From Escherichia phage SR02, in the sequence record OQ870566.1: a DNA stretch of 64,000 nucleotides. One strand, 5' to 3'. Position numbers and translations under genes: made by a program. Under the pieces are notes generated by a model. The model was not told the origin of the DNA and made no database searches. It saw nothing but the letters and a program-made list of their open reading frames with translations. Shown piece after piece: positions 1,533-24,789 of the stretch; the first letter of the stretch is position 1, and every line of letters begins with the position of its first letter.

Positions 1533-4175
1533 TTACTTAGAAGGCATTTCAACACGAACCGAAATGAACGCATCCTTAGGAATGTCAACAGGGTCTCCGT
1601 CAGAAAAACCTTCCAACTCGTTTCTAGCAAAAGATGGGGATGTTGAATGGGTTCTATGATAAGTTTTAATTAAAAGAGAACCATCCTCTTTAACCTCATA
1701 ATCCAACCAAACTCTAGGCTGTTTGTTACGATCTATTGGGATTTCAAAACCTCCATCTACCCCACCCCATCCTGCATCAGAATTAAGACCAAGGCACCCT
1801 AAAATTAAATAAACCCCGGTGGAGACTTTCTTAACACTAACTCCATCGGATTGTTCATTTGTTTCAAAACTTCCGTCATGGAATACCTTAACTATTGGTG
1901 ACGCTGCTTTAATAAAACCGTTGACGTCAACAGTTGTATTTACAGTATCGTATATCGTCCTTGAGGTCCTCCACCCACTGCCTGCTGCACCACCAAAAAC
2001 TTTTATCTTACCGGCAGACTCAAACGGAATACTTATCATACTGTATGTGTCTCCTGCCCTAAAGAAGAGGTTTGAGGAGTAGTTCCATATATCCCAAGGT
2101 GCTGCTATTTGTTGGTTATTCCTAAACACACACAGCCCATAAGTGTCAAGTCCAGCAAGAAGTTGGTCTTGTGAAGTAGTATCAAAAACAAGAGCACCAT
2201 CAGGTCTTCCAATTCCAAAATCACCAACCTTAAGAACATTACCGCTGGTAGTTCCAGTGTTTAGAGTAGCTGAACTCCCCAACCCTAGGTTAAACCTTGC
2301 ACCAGCAGCATCCCCAGCACCTGTCCCACCGCTAGCAATAGGGACGTTATCTAGAGTAGAAACACTCCCAAGACCTAAGTTGGAACGAGCACCAGCAGCA
2401 GTAGTTGCTCCAGTACCTCCATTGGCTACGGGTATATTGTTTAGTGTGGACACTGAACCCAAACCGAGATTGCTTCGTGCACCAGCAGCATCCTTAGCTC
2501 CTGTACCCCCTTGAGGAATACCAAGAGCAATAAAACCGCCATCTGTTACGTTCTGGCACCCCCAAGAACCACCAGTATTGTCAACATAAACACGACGGGC
2601 ATAATCAGGAGAATATATCAAAGTCTGCGAGTTGTCTTGTTGAAATCTTTCAAGATTCAGGTTTGCCCTAGCTTCAGATGGAGTTTTCCCTCCTGTACCA
2701 CCCTGAGCGATAGAGAGAGCTGTAGTGAGTCCTGTCAGGGATGTTATATCAGAGTTTGCACCAGAAGAAGCTGCTCCCAAGATAGATCTGGAGAGGGTTA
2801 CGTTCCCTGTAATCTCATCAGGAGCTTGATTATTTACCGTGACAACATAAGGTTTCTGAGCCTGTACAGACCCATTGTATTGAGAATCTTTATCAGAATC
2901 TGGTGCTCTTATTGCCTCCCCTCCAGTCCAATCAGGAAGTCGAATATTGATGAAATTAGTAGAATCCGCATCAGTAATCCCATCTGCTAGCTTACCCCAT
3001 GAGAAATATTGTTTAGACCCTGCTTGCCATTCAGTTTCAGAGACTACAGGAAGCTGACCACTGACAAGAGATGGGCCTAAGTCGAGAGCAGATTCTTTTG
3101 ACACTAGACGACCGTCCGCAGGAAGAACTCCTGGGTAGGAGATATTCTTAGTTGGGTCATAAGGGAACATCACCATTTCACCAAGGTACAAAGAGGGGTT
3201 CCCTGTTGGAATGGTGATATCAATGTTGCCACTGGAGTCTGGAGAACGGGAGTTAACGGTAAGGATTCTACCTTCAGTTTTAACAGGAGTTAGTGTTTTG
3301 TTAGCAGCAACAGTATAGAATTCATACTTAGTAGCTTCCCAAACTAAAACTTTCTCACCTACTTGACGATACTGAGCATCAGCATCAGCTTCTGCTTTTG
3401 ATTGGTATGTCTTGGTAGTCTTGTCAAATTTGTCATTAATCTCTTGACGACTGTACTGAGCAACGTTCAGAACATTCCCTAAACCTACTGTCTCTTTGTT
3501 GATTGTTAGAGCTACCTCTCCATCAAGAGCTGGTCCCCCATTAACAGAAACAGAACGAACAGATGGGATTAAGTTAGCAATATTCTCTAGAGTAGTTTTA
3601 TGGACGGTATTGTCATCTTTGTCAACATAGAAACCCAAGTCACCTAGCTCTGGAACACCTGTAGGTGCTGTATCTAAGTCTTTAACAGAACCATCTTTTC
3701 CGGGTTCACCTTCTGGGATACCTAAAGAAATTACACCAGTGTTAGGATTAAAAGAACCAGTAGCCGGAGTTCCCGGAGGGAGGGTTGTTACATCAACAGA
3801 CATTCCTAACAGAACATCAAGCTGCTTCTGGACTTCAATGAGTTTCTGGTTAATCAGGGCGACTGCGTTATTTGCATCAGAGACTGCTGCGTCAGTTTGA
3901 GCAATTAATGTCATTAGACGAGCATCTTGATCTTTAAAGTCCTGTTTAAGATCTTCAATATCTTGCTTCATCAGAACACCCTGTTGATACAGACGTTCTA
4001 CTTCAGCGATCAAGTCATCAATTGTACCAAACTTAGACTCCGCTAGCAGTGCCCAATATTTGGAGTCAGCTGCATATTCTGCTGCTTGCTTGTAAGCTCC
4101 GATAGAGCCTTCCGTAGCACCAAACTGCCCAACGTTATTCACTGCATCAGGTGCTTGGTTATTATAAACGATCAT
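1533..4175 (-). CDS. tail fiber / receptor-binding protein (880 aa)
   Basis: Long ORF with AAGGAG RBS; N-terminal coiled-coil-like region; three tandem Gly-rich repeats (AAGARSNLGLGS...); position in late block next to another fiber gene. Confidence 0.7.
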   Translation of the reverse strand: MIVYNNQAPDAVNNVGQFGATEGSIGAYKQAAEYAADSKYWALLAESKFGTIDDLIAEVERLYQQGVLMKQDIEDLKQDFKDQDARLMTLIAQTDAAVSDANNAVALINQKLIEVQKQLDVLLGMSVDVTTLPPGTPATGSFNPNTGVISLGIPEGEPGKDGSVKDLDTAPTGVPELGDLGFYVDKDDNTVHKTTLENIANLIPSVRSVSVNGGPALDGEVALTINKETVGLGNVLNVAQYSRQEINDKFDKTTKTYQSKAEADADAQYRQVGEKVLVWEATKYEFYTVAANKTLTPVKTEGRILTVNSRSPDSSGNIDITIPTGNPSLYLGEMVMFPYDPTKNISYPGVLPADGRLVSKESALDLGPSLVSGQLPVVSETEWQAGSKQYFSWGKLADGITDADSTNFINIRLPDWTGGEAIRAPDSDKDSQYNGSVQAQKPYVVTVNNQAPDEITGNVTLSRSILGAASSGANSDITSLTGLTTALSIAQGGTGGKTPSEARANLNLERFQQDNSQTLIYSPDYARRVYVDNTGGSWGCQNVTDGGFIALGIPQGGTGAKDAAGARSNLGLGSVSTLNNIPVANGGTGATTAAGARSNLGLGSVSTLDNVPIASGGTGAGDAAGARFNLGLGSSATLNTGTTSGNVLKVGDFGIGRPDGALVFDTTSQDQLLAGLDTYGLCVFRNNQQIAAPWDIWNYSSNLFFRAGDTYSMISIPFESAGKIKVFGGAAGSGWRTSRTIYDTVNTTVDVNGFIKAASPIVKVFHDGSFETNEQSDGVSVKKVSTGVYLILGCLGLNSDAGWGGVDGGFEIPIDRNKQPRVWLDYEVKEDGSLLIKTYHRTHSTSPSFARNELEGFSDGDPVDIPKDAFISVRVEMPSK

Positions 4176-4184
4176 ATTATCTCC

Positions 4185-4937
4185 TTATACACGAGAAGTA
4201 CGAATACCATAAATATCAGGCAAGCTGCTCTGAAGTCGAGTCATGTTATTCGGAATTGCGATAGGTGAACCTGAGTACTCTTGTTTCTTATTCTGCTCTA
4301 CCATTTCATCAAGGATAGCTTTTCCTAATGCTGACCATTTCTGAACACCGTTATCATCTTGAACAAATAAGCAAGCATGACGTAGAGTGAAATACAGAAG
4401 AAGTTCTGGTGCAATAGTAAGGATAGCACTGGTATCTGCATCTTCATGGAATTCCGGTGGGTCTGCATAATAGCTAAGAATTACTGAGTTTTCTGCTGGA
4501 ATCAAAGGACTTCCATCATCAGGGTAATACGGAGTATCTGCTTCGATACTAGGGTAGAAAATGAAACGACTCCCGAAACGAGCAAAGTTAACAGGTTGGT
4601 TATTCCAGTGAGATGGGCTAATTGTTCCATGCTGTCTCCGATAGCTAATCTCTTCAGGAGAGGTTACTTGGAAGATTGTACCATCTTTGGCTCTCATCAT
4701 CCATTGAGCTTCTAAGTAATCAGGAGGAATATAAGCTACTCCATCTTTAATATCTAAATACACTTCTTTTTCCAGAGGAGGGATACGTAAGTTACGATAA
4801 ATCTCTTTCTCTGCAAAGTTAATAAAGTTTGGAATTTGATTAACAAATTCGTCATCGTCCCTATCTGCCCAGAGGGCCACGGCCTTCTTTAGCCACCCAT
4901 AGGTATTGATGGGGTATTGAACATCTGGCATTGCCAT
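4185..4937 (-). CDS. hypothetical virion protein (250 aa)
   Basis: ORF in late minus-strand block; TAATGTATA motif on the same strand about 34 nt upstream; no recognisable domain. Confidence 0.5.
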   Translation of the reverse strand: MAMPDVQYPINTYGWLKKAVALWADRDDDEFVNQIPNFINFAEKEIYRNLRIPPLEKEVYLDIKDGVAYIPPDYLEAQWMMRAKDGTIFQVTSPEEISYRRQHGTISPSHWNNQPVNFARFGSRFIFYPSIEADTPYYPDDGSPLIPAENSVILSYYADPPEFHEDADTSAILTIAPELLLYFTLRHACLFVQDDNGVQKWSALGKAILDEMVEQNKKQEYSGSPIAIPNNMTRLQSSLPDIYGIRTSRV

Positions 4938-4979: not shown

Positions 4980-5036
4980 CACACTAGCTTGTATAGGTCT
5001 TAAAACAAGAAAAGCCACCCGAAGGCGGCTTTATTC

Positions 5037-6311
5037 TTATGCACCAGATTTAACAATATAAGTACGGAATATTGTAGAAGCTGGGTCAGTTCTCATTGTT
5101 ACTTTAGTGTCTTCACTAGTGATAGGAGCTGACAACGTGATTGTCAATACCTGACCAGAAAGAGACAATTCCATCAAACCTGCATCAGTACCTTCTACAT
5201 CATACATCAGTTTGCCGGTAAGAGCACCCTGAGGTACACCATCAAAACGAACAACACCCGGTTGAGCTGGGTCAGTGATTGTGATGGTATCTGTAGCAAG
5301 TGGGTTTTCTGGAACACCTACAACAACTGTATTAGTTACTTTTGATGCAACAAGTCCCATCAGCTTAGGAGTCGCAGTAAAACTGCACGTTGCTTGAACA
5401 GAAGGTACAGTTTTATGGACAGCTTTAACTGAAATCATTTCATCACCCGGATCAAGAGCAAGTGTCACATCACCATCAGCTGGGTCAATAGTACCTGCTT
5501 CTGCTGGAGTAATTGTGACAGTGTAATCACTAGGAGAGGAATTACCAAAGAGGAACATAACACCGAAGTTTAACAGAGAACCACCAACCTGAGGTGGTAG
5601 CTCACTAGCCCTAATGTCAGGCTTAGGAACTACACCGTTAACGTTAGCTGTTGCTGTAACAGAAGTTTGAACCTTATGGGTTGCTTTAACCTCATAGTTA
5701 CCACTAGCATTGTTAGTCAGGGTGAGAAGTCCGGTGTTAACATTCATAGAGGTGTTAGTGTTAGGGGTTACGACATAATTAAACTCAGAAGCTGGTTTGT
5801 TACTAGTGAACATTTCAGCAAATGTTACCGTATCTTCTCCAATTTTACCAGTAACTGTTTTACCAGTAATGGTAGCTTTAGCAGTAACTCCTGTAAAGGT
5901 TACAGTGGCCTCTACACCAATCTGAGTTTTGTGAGTAGCTTTAACAGTTACTGTCCCAGATGCGTTATTACTTAGAGTAAATACACCCGCTGTACTTACA
6001 GATCCTGCTGAAGTGGGGGAAACAACAAAAGAATAATCTTCTGCTACTGAGTTAGTTGCTGTAAACATTGTAGTGAAAGCTGTGGTGCTGCCACCCACTT
6101 TCCCTGTGATATTAGCTTTAGCTTCAATAGTGGCTGGCTCAAAAACAGACTGAACTGTAGCTGTCCCTGTCTTACCACCTTTAGTTGCCGTAATAGTTGC
6201 TGGGGTTTCTTGCGACGTACTCGGTGCAGTATATAGCCCAGAAACAGAAACGGCCCCACCGCCTTCAACGGACCAATTAAATCCAGTTGTGCTTGTGGAG
6301 CCGTCGCTCAT
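5037..6311 (-). CDS. Ig-like domain repeat protein (candidate head decoration); probably also made as a -1 frameshift extension of the capsid protein
   Basis: Thr/Val/Gly-rich beta repeats with recurring TLTNNASG...VKATHK motifs; weak RBS at its own ATG; reading frame stays open upstream into the capsid gene 3' end. Confidence 0.6.
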   Translation of the reverse strand: MSDGSTSTTGFNWSVEGGGAVSVSGLYTAPSTSQETPATITATKGGKTGTATVQSVFEPATIEAKANITGKVGGSTTAFTTMFTATNSVAEDYSFVVSPTSAGSVSTAGVFTLSNNASGTVTVKATHKTQIGVEATVTFTGVTAKATITGKTVTGKIGEDTVTFAEMFTSNKPASEFNYVVTPNTNTSMNVNTGLLTLTNNASGNYEVKATHKVQTSVTATANVNGVVPKPDIRASELPPQVGGSLLNFGVMFLFGNSSPSDYTVTITPAEAGTIDPADGDVTLALDPGDEMISVKAVHKTVPSVQATCSFTATPKLMGLVASKVTNTVVVGVPENPLATDTITITDPAQPGVVRFDGVPQGALTGKLMYDVEGTDAGLMELSLSGQVLTITLSAPITSEDTKVTMRTDPASTIFRTYIVKSGA

Positions 6312-6394
6312 TTCTGCTGTAGCTGTAAACTGCTGAGTAGCCCCCGTCGGAAGGCTTTCAACCGACGAAGGACTAACAGTTACGGTATCTACTG

Positions 6395-7456
6395 TTACGC
6401 CGCCGCTACCTTTCCCGCAGCAGTGAACAGAACGCCGGAAGCATACGGGTTGCGGTGACGCAGACCAACTTCCATCTCAATCATCCACTTCTCGTAAGAA
6501 CCATCTTTCGCCAGTTCAGTACGTTTCGGAGCACGCAGAACCATCTGGGTCCAGTCAGCGCTACGGAAGAAGTAAACTGCATCGGTAGGCATCCAACGGT
6601 TAACGATGATTTTGTAGCTCTGGCCCAGCGGGTCAGTGATGCTGTTAACTTCGTAGATGAACTGCTTGGTGTTCTCAAAGATACGCTTACGTGAACCCTG
6701 AGTATTTTCTTGCAGGCCAGCGAAGATCTTAGCATGAGCTGGGTTAATCATGATGATATCTGCTTCAGAACCAGCGGTGTACAGTTGCAGAGTCATATCA
6801 AAGATATCAGCTTCATCAAAACCAATGTTAGTGGTCGGGTTAGAAGCATTCTGTGCAACTTTAACAGTTACTGCACCAGTATCCGGGTCAGCAGGACCAT
6901 TCTTGGTTTTGTCAACAACAGCACCAGCCAGACCACCGTGAGCACACAGGAACTGGAATGCACCAGTCTTACGAGCTGCATGGGTGTCGTTCAGCCCAAC
7001 AGTTGCAGGATCAGTTGCAGAGTTAGTCAGGTATTGGTCAGCCAGAACGTCGGTACGAGCCTGACCGGACAGAAGGATTTTCTCGAGGTCACGCTTGATC
7101 TCTTTACCTTTCTTCTCCAGCTGATACATCAGTTCACGACCACGACCGTAGTTAGCGGTGGTGTTAGCGGTATCAGAAACTTTAACAACCTTACGCAGAA
7201 TCTGAGTAACGTTGGACTTGATTACGGTAGGTTGCATTTCACCATCAACCGCACGAGAACCTTCAACGTGTGCGTTATTAGCGTCAACGCTTGCCAATGC
7301 ATCGGTCTGCCAGCTAAAGATAGTCTGGTTGATAGACTCTTTACCGGTCATAGATACGAACGGAGTATCCTGAGGGGACAGAACAGAAATCCAGTTAGCA
7401 AAAGAAAGTTTTTTACCATTCTGGTCATACGATACAAATAAAGTTGGATTAGCCAT
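6395..7456 (-). CDS. major capsid protein (353 aa)
   Basis: GGAG RBS; located directly downstream of an acidic scaffold-like gene and upstream of the Ig-like ORF; assigned by size and position, not by a recognised motif. Confidence 0.65.
   Translation of the reverse strand: MANPTLFVSYDQNGKKLSFANWISVLSPQDTPFVSMTGKESINQTIFSWQTDALASVDANNAHVEGSRAVDGEMQPTVIKSNVTQILRKVVKVSDTANTTANYGRGRELMYQLEKKGKEIKRDLEKILLSGQARTDVLADQYLTNSATDPATVGLNDTHAARKTGAFQFLCAHGGLAGAVVDKTKNGPADPDTGAVTVKVAQNASNPTTNIGFDEADIFDMTLQLYTAGSEADIIMINPAHAKIFAGLQENTQGSRKRIFENTKQFIYEVNSITDPLGQSYKIIVNRWMPTDAVYFFRSADWTQMVLRAPKRTELAKDGSYEKWMIEMEVGLRHRNPYASGVLFTAAGKVAAA
6410..6416 (-). other. candidate -1 programmed frameshift slippery heptamer G_GGA_AAG
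   Basis: Canonical X_XXY_YYZ heptamer in the capsid frame, 4 codons before the capsid stop; the -1 frame is open for 457 codons; hairpin AACAGU...ACUGUU 13 nt downstream. Confidence 0.5.
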
Positions 7457-7497
7457 GTTATGTTAGCTCCTATACTATTAAATAATTAATTTGTCGA

Positions 7498-8583
7498 TTA
7501 ATCTACGAGGAATTTGAATGCGTCTTCGTGACTAACGCGACCCTCTGCGAATGCCTTGGCAACCTTAGCGTTGTCTGGCTTATTGGAAGTACGAGACTTT
7601 GCAGCATCAGACTTCACAACCTTGCGTGGAGCACCGGGACGTTTAATCTTAGCCATCACCTGCTGCTTACCTTTATCAAATTGGTATGCTTTGTGGAGAG
7701 CTAGGAAAATGGACGGACGGTTTTCCTTCAATACTTCTTCTTCAGTAGCACCTAAGTCAATTGCGTATTGCATTAAGTTTTGATATAAGTTTTCATCCCA
7801 ATTTGGAATCTCACGTTTCAGAATATTAACACATTCAATGCTCTTGGCTTGGAAAGCTTCCTGCTCTTTAGCTGCTGCTTCCTGCTTAATACGGACCTGA
7901 GCCTGTTCAAGCTGGTTACGACGAGCTGTGTACTTCTCTAGGAAACGTTTGTTTTCAACATATGCTTGAGGATCTTCTACTGCAAGCTTGTCCCAATCAA
8001 AACCGTTGTAATCTTCAATTACTCGGTCTGCTTCTAAAGACGCTAATTCTAATACATCCTTCAAACCTACTACACGTTCCTCAAATGCTTCCATGTGACG
8101 CTGAAGAGTTGTTTCTCGTTCAGTCATGTCAGCACCAGTAAGATAGCCATTGGAGAGTTCTTCAATAGTCATCTCACGTCCATCAGGAAGGGTGATAACG
8201 GTTTCGTAGTCTACATCAAAGATTTCACCTTCACCATCAGCAGAATCATCTTCATATCCTGCATCGCTTGAGTCTTCCTCTTCTGCTTCAGTGTTTTCAT
8301 CACCTTCATCAGAGTCATCCCCATCTTCTTCGACTTCGCCTTCCTCATCATGATCTTCCCAACCATCTTCATCTTCGAACTTAAGCTCATCGCTTTCACC
8401 GAGAAGGTCGGTATCAAAGTCAAATTCGTCACCGGTTTGTTCCGGGAACTCATCGTCAATGTCCACTTCTGGTTCTTGTTCAGATTCTAATCGACCAAGC
8501 TCTTCTTTAAAAGAACCTTTCAGGTCATCCAGTTGGAGGAAAGATTTAAAATCGTTCGGGTCAATATAATTATCTTGTGGCAT
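7498..8583 (-). CDS. scaffolding protein (acidic, helical)
   Basis: 361 aa, very rich in Asp/Glu, predicted helical C-terminal half; sits between portal and capsid genes. Confidence 0.55.
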   Translation of the reverse strand: MPQDNYIDPNDFKSFLQLDDLKGSFKEELGRLESEQEPEVDIDDEFPEQTGDEFDFDTDLLGESDELKFEDEDGWEDHDEEGEVEEDGDDSDEGDENTEAEEEDSSDAGYEDDSADGEGEIFDVDYETVITLPDGREMTIEELSNGYLTGADMTERETTLQRHMEAFEERVVGLKDVLELASLEADRVIEDYNGFDWDKLAVEDPQAYVENKRFLEKYTARRNQLEQAQVRIKQEAAAKEQEAFQAKSIECVNILKREIPNWDENLYQNLMQYAIDLGATEEEVLKENRPSIFLALHKAYQFDKGKQQVMAKIKRPGAPRKVVKSDAAKSRTSNKPDNAKVAKAFAEGRVSHEDAFKFLVD

Positions 8584-8828: not shown

Positions 8829-11072
8829 TTACTTTTTACTTCCAAGACGTTTGCCTGGAATCCGTGAATCTTTGAGAGAAGCTTGTTGCTCTTTCTTAGT
8901 TACATTAGCTTCTTTCTTTTGGAGTTCCAAAGTTTTGTCCTGAACACGAGCTTGCTGAACAATCTTCTCTTGGTCTACCTGATGAGACATAACCATCTGC
9001 AATTCTTTCAGTACAGATTCGTACTGACGGACCTGCTGTTGCATAAGAGCTAACTTGTGCTTAGCTTGTTCCAGAGTAGCATTGTTATCTTCTTTACGGT
9101 TTTCCAGAGTCATTGCATCTGCTGCATTTTCTTGCTTGAACTGCAACTCTTCCTGACGCAGACTTAACTCATCCGCAGCTTTCTGCTGTTCGAATGTAGT
9201 ACGTTCACGTTGGTCGAATGCATCAGCAATCATCTTCTGAGAAGAAGCCTGTACGTTCTCAACCTGAGCTTTAGTCATCTCTAGCTGGAGGATTTCCATC
9301 GGAGAAGGTTCAGGAGGCTGATACTGTTCCAGAGGCAGAAGGTATTTATGTGTATCTTTAATACCCATCAACTCAAAGATCTGTGCAGTCATGTAACGGT
9401 CTTGCTCCAAACCAAAGAGAGGTGCTAACTGTGCATCTGCTGCAATCAGCTGTTTCAAGCTAATCAGTTTCTGTGCACGTTCTGCTTTCTCATTAGGAGA
9501 GATAGCTACAACAACTTGAAGATTATGACGAGCTGGCAATTGTTTCGGATTTACCTGAATCATACCACGAGGGGTTTGTACCTCAATAGGAACTTCACCG
9601 TTTTCTCTGATAAGACTATAAATGCCACGCATCAATTCAACCATACCGTTGTGAGCGATGTTACGACATACCATACGGAGACGGTTCTGTGCAGCATTCA
9701 TCATCAAACCTACGGTTGCATAAGCGTTATCATTCTTAAACACATCAGGGTTGATACCCATGCCTAGTTTGGTTACACCTGTACGTGTCTCTTTAAGCTC
9801 CTCAGACATGCCTAGGAGGCCATCAATACCTTGAGGTAGGTTATGGTATGGGAACAGGTCAATAGCGTCCTGACGTTCCATTTCAACCACTCCACCGGGA
9901 CGGTTATCAAGCAGAGAGCGACGATCGTATGCACCAACAAGAGCTTTATATCGACCATAGTTAGCATTGTTGACGTTATCAATATAACCACGAACTAACG
10001 CGGTACGTAAATCTTGAATATCTTTCGTAATGTCATAAACTGATTGACCATAGAAGGAACCAGGAATCGGATACGGACAGAAGGTTACAAACGGAATGTG
10101 AGTTACTTCTTCAGTGTGAAGGATATGCTCACCAGCTTGAATAACCTGATAGAGTTTAGACTCTTTATTCTTATCTAGAACACCAGTACGAATGTAGTGC
10201 TCATAAACCCAAACCATAGAAGCGATATCTTCAGTATCTGTACCAATGTCAGCATCAATGTCCTGACGCCAGTCAGTACGAGACCAAGCAACTGTAGATT
10301 GAGTGGTATCCATCGTGTCTGTCCAGTCGTTGAATGCTTCAATCTCATCTTTAGGGAAGCCCATAGCAACCAGATCTTCTTTAGAACGACGTACACGATG
10401 ACAGAAATATTGTGCATCTGCAAAAGAGGTAGCATGTTCATCAACAAAGATTTGCTCTGAAGGAACATATTCAACTTTCACACGTTTAACAGTTTGTTCA
10501 TAAGTAACTTTAACATCAACTGTACCATCTTCATTTTCTTCAGTGAAGATTTCCAGATTCTTGAGTCCACCAGCTTCTAATCCCTGAACATATGCAGCCA
10601 ATGCTTCCGGTGGTACACCTTCAGCTTCTTCAGTTTGAGTAGAAGTTTGTTCATCCCAATAATACTTGATAAAAGAGTTACGAGTTACCAGACATTCTTG
10701 TGCAGCAGAAGAGATAATATTGTATCCCGGATTGTCACGCAGAAGAATTTGGTTAACTAGTTTAGTTGCTACGTCAGCAGCATCAGAATCCTGTTGGTTG
10801 TCAGCTACGAAAGTAACTGCTTCATCACCAGAACAGAATACGTTAATAATATCTTGCAATGTACCGTTAACAGATTCCCAAACAGTACGATCTACCCAAC
10901 TAGAGCTGCCAGCAGTTACTGGTGCAGGTAAGTTACCGTAGAAATATTCCCAAGCTTCACGAGCATAGCCCTTAACAGCCATGTCAACGTAACCTTGAGC
11001 GTAATTAAAACGACGTTGAAGGTCAACACGTAACTCGTCCAACACCTCTTCACTATATTTTTGCTTAGCCAT
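8829..11072 (-). CDS. portal protein (747 aa)
   Basis: Large ORF immediately downstream of the terminase large subunit and upstream of the scaffold; assigned by size and position. Confidence 0.6.
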   Translation of the reverse strand: MAKQKYSEEVLDELRVDLQRRFNYAQGYVDMAVKGYAREAWEYFYGNLPAPVTAGSSSWVDRTVWESVNGTLQDIINVFCSGDEAVTFVADNQQDSDAADVATKLVNQILLRDNPGYNIISSAAQECLVTRNSFIKYYWDEQTSTQTEEAEGVPPEALAAYVQGLEAGGLKNLEIFTEENEDGTVDVKVTYEQTVKRVKVEYVPSEQIFVDEHATSFADAQYFCHRVRRSKEDLVAMGFPKDEIEAFNDWTDTMDTTQSTVAWSRTDWRQDIDADIGTDTEDIASMVWVYEHYIRTGVLDKNKESKLYQVIQAGEHILHTEEVTHIPFVTFCPYPIPGSFYGQSVYDITKDIQDLRTALVRGYIDNVNNANYGRYKALVGAYDRRSLLDNRPGGVVEMERQDAIDLFPYHNLPQGIDGLLGMSEELKETRTGVTKLGMGINPDVFKNDNAYATVGLMMNAAQNRLRMVCRNIAHNGMVELMRGIYSLIRENGEVPIEVQTPRGMIQVNPKQLPARHNLQVVVAISPNEKAERAQKLISLKQLIAADAQLAPLFGLEQDRYMTAQIFELMGIKDTHKYLLPLEQYQPPEPSPMEILQLEMTKAQVENVQASSQKMIADAFDQRERTTFEQQKAADELSLRQEELQFKQENAADAMTLENRKEDNNATLEQAKHKLALMQQQVRQYESVLKELQMVMSHQVDQEKIVQQARVQDKTLELQKKEANVTKKEQQASLKDSRIPGKRLGSKK

Positions 11073-24713: not shown

Positions 24714-24789
24714 GCGCTCTTAGCTCAATGGATAGAGCAGTAGCCTTCTAAGCTATTGGTTACAGGTTCGAGTCCTGTAGGGCGCACCA
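24714..24789 (+). tRNA. tRNA-Arg (anticodon UCU)
   Basis: 76-nt cloverleaf folded by hand: acceptor GCGCTCT/AGGGCGC, D-stem GCTC/GAGC, anticodon stem GTAGC/GCTAT with loop CTTCTAA, T-arm ACAGG-TTCGAGT-CCTGT, encoded CCA. Confidence 0.85.

Follow-up and report, generated by a model that had tools for sequence, protein, structure and literature searches.

A probable -1 frameshift fusion of the major capsid protein to Ig-like domains in Escherichia phage SR02, as in other Kuravirus-like phages

The major capsid gene of Escherichia phage SR02 most probably carries, at its 3′ end, a programmed -1 ribosomal frameshift of the kind that typifies Kuravirus-like (phiEco32-like) phages. The probability of this reading is put at about 90% on the basis of a window of 64,000 nucleotides, which is the whole stretch of sequence record OQ870566.1 that was analysed. 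The central claim of an earlier, sequence-only reading of this DNA, a frameshift fusing the capsid protein to an Ig-like protein, is supported by the continuity of the domains across the junction, the lack of an independent start, conservation, the dN/dS ratio, the presence of a single transcription unit and prior descriptions. The capsid-Ig frameshift is thus correct but already known; it is not a new finding because it has been described and annotated in the closest relatives.

In the proposed mechanism, ribosomes would initiate at the Shine-Dalgarno sequence and ATG of the capsid gene. Most of them would read through its end in the 0 frame and release the 353-aa capsid protein, and a minority would slip by -1, with the tRNA-Gly moving from GGA to GGG and the tRNA-Lys from AAG to AAA. 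The slipped ribosomes would read 457 further codons in the -1 frame, giving an 806-aa product that consists, in order, of capsid residues 1-349, a GSGG linker, a Big_2 domain, three Ig-like repeats of about 85 aa and a C-terminal beta domain of about 110 aa. This minor species would co-assemble into the prolate head by means of its capsid-fold part, leaving the Ig-like chain displayed on the surface. We infer both the shifting in phage SR02 and the outward display of the chain from the sequence. Weak adhesion to carbohydrate-rich surfaces is the likely role of the extension. The heptamer itself is probably the main determinant of shifting, and a downstream stem-loop may modulate the ratio of the two products. 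By analogy with the identical heptamer of lambda G-T, the efficiency probably amounts to a few percent; a value of about 3.5% for lambda G/GT is quoted at second hand in PMC9965538.

Capsid gene, slip site and extension

The capsid protein belongs to the Pfam family SU10_MCP (PF17236, E 5.7e-77), its residues 1-352 are near-identical to the solved major head protein of phage SU10 (gp9, 7z45, E 1.4e-231), and it is 100% identical to the capsid protein of phage Paul. Its AGGAG is the only ribosome entry site for both products. When the minus strand was re-read, the heptamer and the 3′ end of the gene (...GCU GCG GGA AAG GUA GCG GCG GCG UAA) were both found as claimed earlier (Table 1). The heptamer stands in the X_XXY_YYZ register of the 0 frame at codons 348-349, which makes tandem tRNA re-pairing possible, and G_GGA_AAG is listed among the highly shift-prone heptamers in E. 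coli (PMC5009743). By itself it is nothing special, with 9 occurrences of GGGAAAG in the window and 6.9 expected. Both strands of the window together hold 93 stop-to-stop open reading frames of 100 codons or more, and only in the capsid gene is an in-frame X_XXY_YYZ motif combined with a -1 frame reaching at least 50 codons beyond the stop. Inspection of the sequence upstream of the heptamer revealed no Shine-Dalgarno-like motif, and the sole tRNA of the phage, Arg(UCU), is irrelevant to a Gly/Lys slip.

Table 1. Features of the capsid-extension region (window coordinates)
Feature	Position	Strand	Basis or remark
Shine-Dalgarno AGGAG of the capsid gene	7467..7471	-	upstream sequence ...tataggagctaacataac ATG
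Major capsid protein gene, 0 frame	6395..7456	-	353 aa, 38.7 kDa; UAA stop 6395-6397; ORF list
Slippery heptamer G_GGA_AAG, predicted -1 shift site	6410..6416	-	19 nt ahead of the capsid stop
-1 frame extension	5037..6416	-	459 sense codons and stop 5037-5039; translation
Hairpin 1, AACAGU-N10-ACUGUU	6375..6396	-	spans the capsid stop codon; 6/6 pairs invariant
Irregular 20-bp stem-loop, 59 nt, conserved	6325..6383	-	RNAalifold consensus; 26 nt past the heptamer, 11 nt past the capsid stop
Hairpin 2, CGUCGG-N11-CCGACG	6345..6367	-	apical helix of the 6325-6383 stem-loop; 2/6 pairs covary
First Ig-like domain, Big_2 PF02368	6153..6392	-	transframe peptide residues 9-88
Internal Met codon, gene callers' start of the 424-aa 'hypothetical protein'	6309..6311	-	not a conserved start
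Three tandem Ig-like repeats of about 85 aa	5367..6131	-	extension residues 96-350; all-beta in model
C-terminal beta domain of the extension, about 110 aa	5040..5366	-	beta strands at residues 354-457 (model)
Intrinsic terminator directly 3′ of the extension stop	5011..5032	-	9-bp stem, 5 G-C pairs, U-rich tail

The open stretch of the -1 frame begins 20 codons ahead of the heptamer and, in agreement with the sequence-only reading, continues from the heptamer through the entire 424-aa Ig-like frame at 5037-6311. The translated fusion comprises 347 + 459 = 806 aa with a computed mass of 84.8 kDa, matching the size anticipated for the minor species (about 806 aa, roughly 85 kDa), and its junction reads ...FTAAGK/GSGGVTVDTV. 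The Glu-C peptide predicted to be diagnostic of the fusion is VGLRHRNPYASGVLFTAAGKGSGGVTVDTVTVSPSSVE.

The extension matches PHROG 13745, 'Ig domain containing protein' (E 8.7e-87). Its AlphaFold model is all-beta with a pLDDT of 89.1, and a Foldseek search with this model matched tandem Ig-like proteins as well as the 894-aa fusion of phage Paul. The whole 459-aa extension has no match in Pfam at E<=0.01; Big_2 is recovered when the first 100 residues are searched alone, with 25.2 bits against a gathering cut-off of 22.8 and coverage of profile positions 2-77 of 79. Without the 35 residues ahead of Met36, this threshold is not reached. Twenty-seven residues of the domain lie ahead of the ATG at 6311, and the modelled strands 9-15, 27-29 and 31-36 all precede Met36. 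The repeats that follow align with each other at scores of 170 (R1/R2) and 119 (R1/R3). With a dN/dS of 0.2-0.4 in the -1 frame, the extension is under purifying selection. There is no terminator after the capsid stop; a single one follows the extension, and the record of phage Paul has a terminator annotated at the same place. The capsid gene and the extension form one transcription unit, which is closed by this terminator.

The heptamer GGGAAAG is kept, together with a -1 frame that stays open for 180-547 codons, in all 26 Kuravirus-like loci examined, which were independently sequenced and come from isolates and metagenomes. Relatives lacking both, to which the sequence-only reading had pointed as possible counter-evidence, were not found among these loci. 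Of 68 stretches retrieved from metagenomes with an 18-base pattern, only 10 were Kuravirus-like, and the rest, which matched by chance, were left out.

The Ig extension has a modular build, and its length is 180 codons in phiEco32, 353 in SGF2, 545-547 in YF01 and Paul, and 459 here. Alignment of the extensions gives one to four copies of the ~85-aa repeat in the relatives, and Paul, YF01, EP335 and Bas87 share the C-terminal beta domain, which phiEco32 and SGF2 lack. More distant relatives have other slip sites with Ig-encoding -1 frames, or duplicated capsid genes. The variant heptamers of these lineages are G_GUA_AAG, C_CCA_AAA and A_AAA_AAG, the non-canonical G_GUA_AAG being backed by a canonical GC hairpin at a spacing of 6 nt. 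A tandem duplication of the capsid gene with an in-frame extension appears to be an alternative route in the phiEco32/7-11/Privateer supergroup.

RNA structures downstream of the slip site

Two hairpins had been noticed behind the heptamer in the sequence-only reading, and both exist. Hairpin 1 was recovered with the sequence and coordinates claimed, and hairpin 2 has a loop of 11 nt instead of the 12 nt claimed. Neither of them is close enough to the heptamer for a canonical stimulator. The spacer between the heptamer and hairpin 1 measures 13 nt (in phages of the phiEco32 type, 10 nt). Because hairpin 1 and the long stem-loop share an arm (3′ in the former, 5′ in the latter), the two structures are mutually exclusive. 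The pairs of hairpin 1 never vary, so covariation is uninformative and gives evidence neither way. Hairpin 2 is the apex of the longer stem, which has a spacer of 26 nt.

The long stem-loop itself is conserved, with 99.2% of the alignment cells paired against 93.5% in shuffles and with compensatory changes at three pairs (A-U/G-C; G-C/U-A/A-U; G-C/U-G). The fold of this region in the window has a free energy of -43.1 kcal/mol, corresponding to a z-score of -2.88 against shuffles. A search of Rfam over the region returned no family, only one chance miRNA match (E 0.44) on the other strand.

Whether the downstream hairpins act as stimulators that set the frameshift efficiency is doubtful. In favour of such a role stand the compensatory changes and the stability of the fold, together with the distant relatives, in which weaker heptamers are accompanied by a hairpin exactly 6 nt downstream. 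The frameshift of T7 gene 10 also relies on a distant 3′ element. On the other side, no canonical stimulator was found 5-9 nt downstream of the heptamer, the spacing typical in bacteria, and the conserved structures start at 13 and 26 nt. Hairpin 1, being invariant and in competition with the long stem, adds no support, and the drop in synonymous variation across the hairpin region is slight and not decisive (0.31 compared with 0.38). Moreover, the identical heptamer functions in lambda G-T with no obligatory downstream structure.

Two other structures were considered and rejected as stimulators. The closing helix GUAGC/GCUAC near +1 to +6, obtained when folding starts from the heptamer, is weak, lineage-specific and not conserved. 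The SU10-type stem was rejected because the slip site lies within it and the ribosome would unwind it.

A tentative proposal, which we consider possible rather than probable, joins two ideas: that the stem-loop at 6325-6383 is a cis-element tuning the proportion of short and long capsid protein, and that the phiEco32/7-11/Privateer supergroup has reached the pair of a short and an Ig-bearing long capsid protein repeatedly and by different routes (four slip sites and gene duplication). The stem-loop could stimulate frameshifting from an unusual distance, or it could act on termination or mRNA stability. No description of either idea was found in the accessible literature.

Earlier descriptions and alternative explanations

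The records of phages Paul and YF01 contain an annotated joined CDS, in Paul with the note 'Frameshift at GGGAAAG', and the capsid frameshift of YF01 at GGGAAAG has been described (PMC9965538). Both capsid species were detected in virions of Privateer by SDS-PAGE and MS (PMC7881722), and later papers credit phiEco32 with both species in its virions. In SU10, a 55.4-kDa 9+10 product was identified by MS (PMC4281155), and both species have been reported for its virions. Cryo-EM and SDS-PAGE of SU10 contradict this: the map lacks density for additional capsid domains, and the long form gave no visible band. The fusion may therefore be incorporated or retained at a low or variable level. A premature stop interrupts the -1 frame of SU10 (PMC9965538), and therefore the extension can be lost while viability is kept. 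The SR02 paper does not mention a frameshift, and the SR02 record enters the Ig-like frame as a separate 424-aa hypothetical protein.

This annotation, which most GenBank relatives share, corresponds to an independent gene starting from the ATG at 6311. It would encode a free 424-aa, 43-kDa decoration protein bound non-covalently, and the heptamer would have arisen by chance from the coding of Ala-Gly-Lys. In the SU10 cryo-EM paper, gp10 likewise counts as a protein in its own right, with an Ig-like fold. Such a start is nevertheless very unlikely. The ATG had been credited with only a weak ribosome binding site; no Shine-Dalgarno motif was found upstream of it, while six of six neighbouring genes have AGGAG-type sites. 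It is the sole start-like codon in 300 nt, the corresponding alignment column in relatives holds ATG, AAA (Lys) or CTA (Leu), and the starts annotated for the Ig-like frame differ among the relatives' GenBank records. A protein beginning there would lose strands A and B of the first Big_2 domain, with three strands of the model lying ahead of Met36, and the ATG-started fragment has no match in Pfam without the upstream 35 residues. Every locus keeps the -1 frame open back to the heptamer, and the 9+10 product of SU10 points the same way.

Transcriptional slippage on GGGAAA, by which a one-base deletion in the mRNA would create the long product in place of ribosomal slippage, is less probable still. 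It would give the same protein architecture, and the two cannot be fully separated by sequence alone. However, known sites of transcriptional slippage need longer homopolymer runs (PMC5009743) than the G3 and A3 present here, and the tandem-tRNA rule X_XXY_YYZ is obeyed in the right register by all lineages, also by those with variant heptamers. Finally, although single-base indels near homopolymer runs such as GGG AAA are a frequent sequencing error, it is practically negligible that an indel conceals one continuous 806-aa capsid gene, or that the extension is a decaying pseudogene, given the identical frame arrangement in the 26 independently sequenced loci, the solved SU10 capsid structures built from the short 352-aa protein, the dN/dS of the extension and the assembly of the SR02 genome at >12,000x coverage.

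Significance and comparison with known systems

The main value of the programmed frameshift reading for SR02 lies in annotation, as the gene model becomes one capsid gene with two products. Phage SR02 is a candidate for therapeutic cocktails, and display of a five-domain Ig-like chain could affect mucus or urothelial adhesion, pharmacokinetics and immunogenicity. The shift site is also a natural position for C-terminal display, as in T7. To the biology of frameshifting the mechanism adds nothing new; comparative work could take modest leads from the modularity of the extension, the conservation of the distant hairpin and the different solutions found among related phages.

The closest systems are the Kuravirus-like frameshifts of phiEco32 (gp11/gp11-12), SU10 (gp9/gp9+10), Paul (CPT_Paul_009/010) and YF01 (gp8), whose capsid genes are of the same SU10_MCP family. 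The cassette is the same, with GGGAAAG at 16-19 nt from the capsid stop, then a GSGG or GGG linker and Big_2, and so is the order of portal, scaffold, capsid, extension, adaptor and fibre genes with a terminator after the extension. The content of the extension cassette is the only difference, apart from the frameshift being unannotated in the SR02 record.

Genes 10A/10B of T3 and T7 also use a -1 shift near the end of the capsid gene to make a minor form of the capsid protein with a C-terminal extension, which co-assembles into the head. The analogy with T7 drawn by the sequence-only reading holds, with a far larger extension here: that of T7, which slips on G_GUU_UUC and needs its distant 3′ element, has about 50 aa against 459. 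We know of no detectable sequence similarity between the T7 capsid lineage and the capsid protein considered here. T3 is a closer analogue than T7, its extension being Ig-like (PMC5009743).

The likeness to lambda G/GT also proved correct, since the heptamer G_GGA_AAG is identical and the same tandem slip of tRNA-Gly and tRNA-Lys occurs in E. coli. In contrast, the lambda product is a tail assembly chaperone and no component of the virion, and its extension is not an Ig domain.

The same general phenomenon is represented by Ig-like domains, often Big_2, on the C-termini of capsid and tail proteins, attached through +1 or -1 shifts and suspected to arise from promiscuous domain movement. Capsid genes of Lactobacillus phage A2 and Listeria phages A118, A500 and PSA are examples (Fraser et al. 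2006; PMC5009743). These cases belong to other phage lineages with other slip sites, and they usually carry one domain, compared with the five-domain chain here. T4 Hoc places Ig-like domains on the head surface too, and weak adhesion to mucus or glycans has been proposed for it (BAM model). Hoc is a separate gene product bound non-covalently at hexamer centres, whereas in SR02, as read from the gene, the domains would be covalently part of the capsid subunit.

The capsid slip site and its predicted fusion product

The 3′ end of the SR02 major capsid gene reads GCU GCG GGA AAG GUA GCG GCG GCG UAA. As the sequence-only reading had claimed, it holds the heptamer GGGAAAG in the X_XXY_YYZ register, from which a −1 frame (the extension) stays open. 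This frame has 459 codons, up to the stop at 5037-5039. The predicted fusion has 347 + 459 = 806 aa (84.8 kDa; junction ...FTAAGK/GSGGVTVDTV). GGGAAAG by itself is ordinary, with 9 copies found in the window and 6.9 expected. Among the 93 ORFs that reach 100 codons or more, both strands counted, the capsid gene alone has an in-frame slippery heptamer from which the −1 frame goes on for at least 50 codons past the stop. The slip site and the open −1 frame are confirmed, and a −1 frameshift fusing the capsid protein to the Ig-like extension is supported, except for the role of the hairpins as stimulators.

Features of the structural module and the slip-site region in the SR02 window
Feature	Coordinates	Strand	Source
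Portal	8829-11072	-	ORF list
78-aa ORF	between portal and scaffold	-	ORF list
Scaffold	7498-8583	-	ORF list
353-aa ORF (major capsid protein)	6395-7456	-	ORF list
Slippery heptamer GGGAAAG	6410-6416	-	
Hairpin 1 (AACAGU-N10-ACUGUU)	6375-6396	-	
Long stem-loop	6325-6383	-	
Hairpin 2 (CGUCGG...CCGACG)	6345-6367	-	
Extension (−1 frame)	5037-6416	-	
424-aa ORF (Ig-like)	5037-6311	-	ORF list
Intrinsic terminator	5011-5032	-	
Adaptor	4185-4937	-	ORF list
Tail fibre, 880 aa	1533-4175	-	ORF list
tRNA-Arg (anticodon UCU)	24714-24789	+	

The 353-aa protein belongs to the major capsid proteins of the SU10 type (Pfam PF17236, E 5.7e-77). It is almost identical to its counterpart in the solved SU10 virion (7z45, E 1.4e-231) and shows 100% identity to the one in phage Paul. 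The 424-aa ORF is entered in the SR02 record as 'hypothetical protein' (100% identical match). SR02 is a Kuravirus with uropathogenic E. coli UTI89 as isolation host, and the frameshift goes unmentioned in the paper describing it (PMC11997193). Elsewhere in the window, the central part of the tail fibre gene carries several near-identical short repeats (…GGTGA..AAGARSNLGLGS…), and the tRNA-Arg gene, the sole tRNA gene, has no relation to the slip-site Gly/Lys codons.

Capsid gene and extension among the relatives

The capsid/Ig frameshift was known before, and the closest relatives carry it as an annotation; the remaining value of the analysis lies in a corrected SR02 gene model and minor comparative leads. 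The records of phages Paul and YF01 both give one joined CDS, to which the Paul record adds 'Frameshift at GGGAAAG; Frameshift in PhiEco32 major capsid protein product as well (PMID 18294652)'. Published work on YF01 covers the heptamer, isoforms of 353 and 892 aa and the Ig-like extension, and also records a premature stop in the SU10 −1 frame (PMC9965538). Mass spectrometry of SU10 gave a 55.4-kDa '9+10' species (PMC4281155), and in Privateer bands of both capsid species were seen and the feature was called conserved among phiEco32-like phages (PMC7881722). In contrast to these two reports, SU10 cryo-EM gave no density for additional capsid domains (PMC9509320).

Among loci L088-L096 (GenBank records of PGN6866, SGF2, ES17, Ptacy1532, EP335, IME267, Bas87, E20-1), the frameshift is unannotated in most public records of the group. 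In these the Ig ORF stands as a CDS of its own, at start positions that differ between records, or is left uncalled (PGN6866); 'capsid and scaffold protein' is the name given to the capsid gene in several.

The comparison with related genomes agrees with the sequence-only reading, as GGGAAAG lies in frame with an open −1 frame in all 26 Kuravirus-like loci examined, 16 or 19 nt ahead of the capsid stop and with −1 frames of 180-547 codons. Residues 9-88 of the transframe peptide match the Big_2 domain above the gathering threshold, covering profile positions 2-77 of 79. No match to the profile was returned for the fragment begun at ATG 6311. The AlphaFold model of the extension, built from 30 homologues, is all-beta (mean pLDDT 89.1) and places strands 9-15, 27-29 and 31-36 ahead of Met36, the residue encoded by that ATG. 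Foldseek matched the model to tandem Ig-like proteins, and the viral protein that matched best was the frameshift product of phage Paul (894 aa). The supposed weak ribosome-binding site of ATG 6311 proved to lack a Shine-Dalgarno sequence, AGGAG-type sites being present at six of six neighbouring genes. Within 300 nt there is no other start-like codon, the column of this ATG is AAA or CTA in relatives in the nucleotide alignment of the region (A1), and the GenBank 'start' of their Ig ORF lies 12, 33 or 84 nt past the capsid stop. The dN/dS of the −1 frame is 0.2-0.4 in comparison with six relatives. A strong intrinsic terminator lies 3′ of the extension, and none was found after the capsid stop. 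Domain continuity, lack of an independent start, conservation, selection and the single terminator support one gene with two products instead of separate 353-aa and 424-aa ORFs.

The extension is built as a cassette of 180-547 codons, in which Big_2 is followed by one to four copies of a repeat of ~85 aa, with or without a C-terminal domain of ~110 aa; SR02 has three repeats and the C-terminal domain. Comparison of 5040-6131 (minus strand) with loci L001, L002, L003, L089, L093 and L095 showed this cassette-like variation next to otherwise near-identical capsid genes, which suggests that recombination within the repeats is frequent.

Hairpins and the conserved stem-loop

Both hairpins claimed downstream of the slip site are present, the loop of hairpin 2 having 11 nt rather than 12. 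The SR02 hairpin region folds at -43.1 kcal/mol (z -2.88). In A1 (18 distinct sequences; column n is window position 6446-n), RNAalifold predicted a long irregular stem-loop of 59 nt and 20 pairs at columns 63-121, inside the Big_2 coding sequence and with hairpin 2 as its apex. Its cells are paired in 99.2% of cases, compared with 93.5 ± 0.8% in shuffles and 27-50% with the partners slid. Three pairs changed on both sides, namely 65:119 (A-U/G-C), 83:97 (G-C/U-A/A-U) and 84:96 (G-C/U-G). One side of 83:97 is the third position of a Ser codon, where the changes are synonymous, and the other is the second position of a Pro/Leu/Gln/Glu codon; constraint on the protein does not account for their covariation.

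Hairpin 1 is invariant across A1 and thus uninformative on covariation. Since the long stem uses the 3′ arm of hairpin 1 as its own 5′ arm, the two structures are mutually exclusive. Bacterial frameshift stimulators usually stand 5-9 nt from the heptamer. Hairpin 1 is spaced 13 nt from the heptamer (10 nt in phages of the phiEco32 type) and the long stem-loop 26 nt, distances outside this range, and the stimulator role claimed for the hairpins is not supported, given these spacers and the invariance and exclusivity of hairpin 1. Synonymous variation is slightly lower in the hairpin region, and an Rfam search of it matched no family. In view of the pairing and covariation, the long spacers, the slight synonymous reduction and the Rfam result, we take the long stem-loop to be a genuine, conserved RNA structure with a putative function, not an established stimulator. 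It starts 11 nt past the capsid stop, at the expected leading-edge position of a terminating ribosome, and no description of it was found in the literature examined.

Distant relatives and the probable mechanism of the shift

Variant slip sites occur in more distant loci. In Privateervirus (L097/L098: Proteus P59 and Cronobacter 009, near 3447), GGGAAAG abuts the UAA stop and opens a 171-codon −1 frame, and E. coli phage PJNS034 (L103, near 3384) has C_CCA_AAA with a −1 frame of 134 codons; both variants occupy the same gene position as the SR02 site. Three metagenomic phages (L008-L010, about 4410-4440) and Aeromonas LAh_8 (L100/L011, about 3410) carry G_GUA_AAG, whose P-site codon is non-canonical, in a capsid gene ending ...CUG AAG GUA AAG GCG UAA with an Ig-like domain in the −1 frame. 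In L008-L010, a GC-rich hairpin (GCGCCC-CUAC-GGGCGU; fold z -3.9) stands exactly 6 nt past this heptamer. Contig L013 has A_AAA_AAG.

Some relatives without the frameshift have two or three tandem major-capsid paralogues instead. Examples are Salmonella SeKF_80 (L101; 1484-2422 and 2501-4270) and Cronobacter A24 (L102; 2492-3430 and 3511-4596), and L013 has three tandem copies ending at 2238, 3367 and 4430. The tandem genes include a long paralogue with an in-frame extension (589 aa in SeKF_80), and they appear to be an alternative genetic route to the short and long capsid pair. The Vibrio Vp_R1 locus lacks a slip site and has a single capsid gene.

The shift in SR02 would most likely be a tandem −1 slip, with tRNA-Gly moving from GGA to GGG and tRNA-Lys from AAG to AAA. 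The same tandem tRNA-Gly/tRNA-Lys slip takes place at the lambda G-T site, whose heptamer is identical to that of SR02. From the 715 capsid subunits of the SU10-type head (PMC9509320), an assumed shift of 1-10% with proportional incorporation would place some 7-70 long subunits in each head. Reviews count G_GGA_AAG as one of the heptamers at which E. coli ribosomes shift most readily, and they describe Ig-like extensions of capsid proteins via frameshifting, for example in T3 (PMC5009743).
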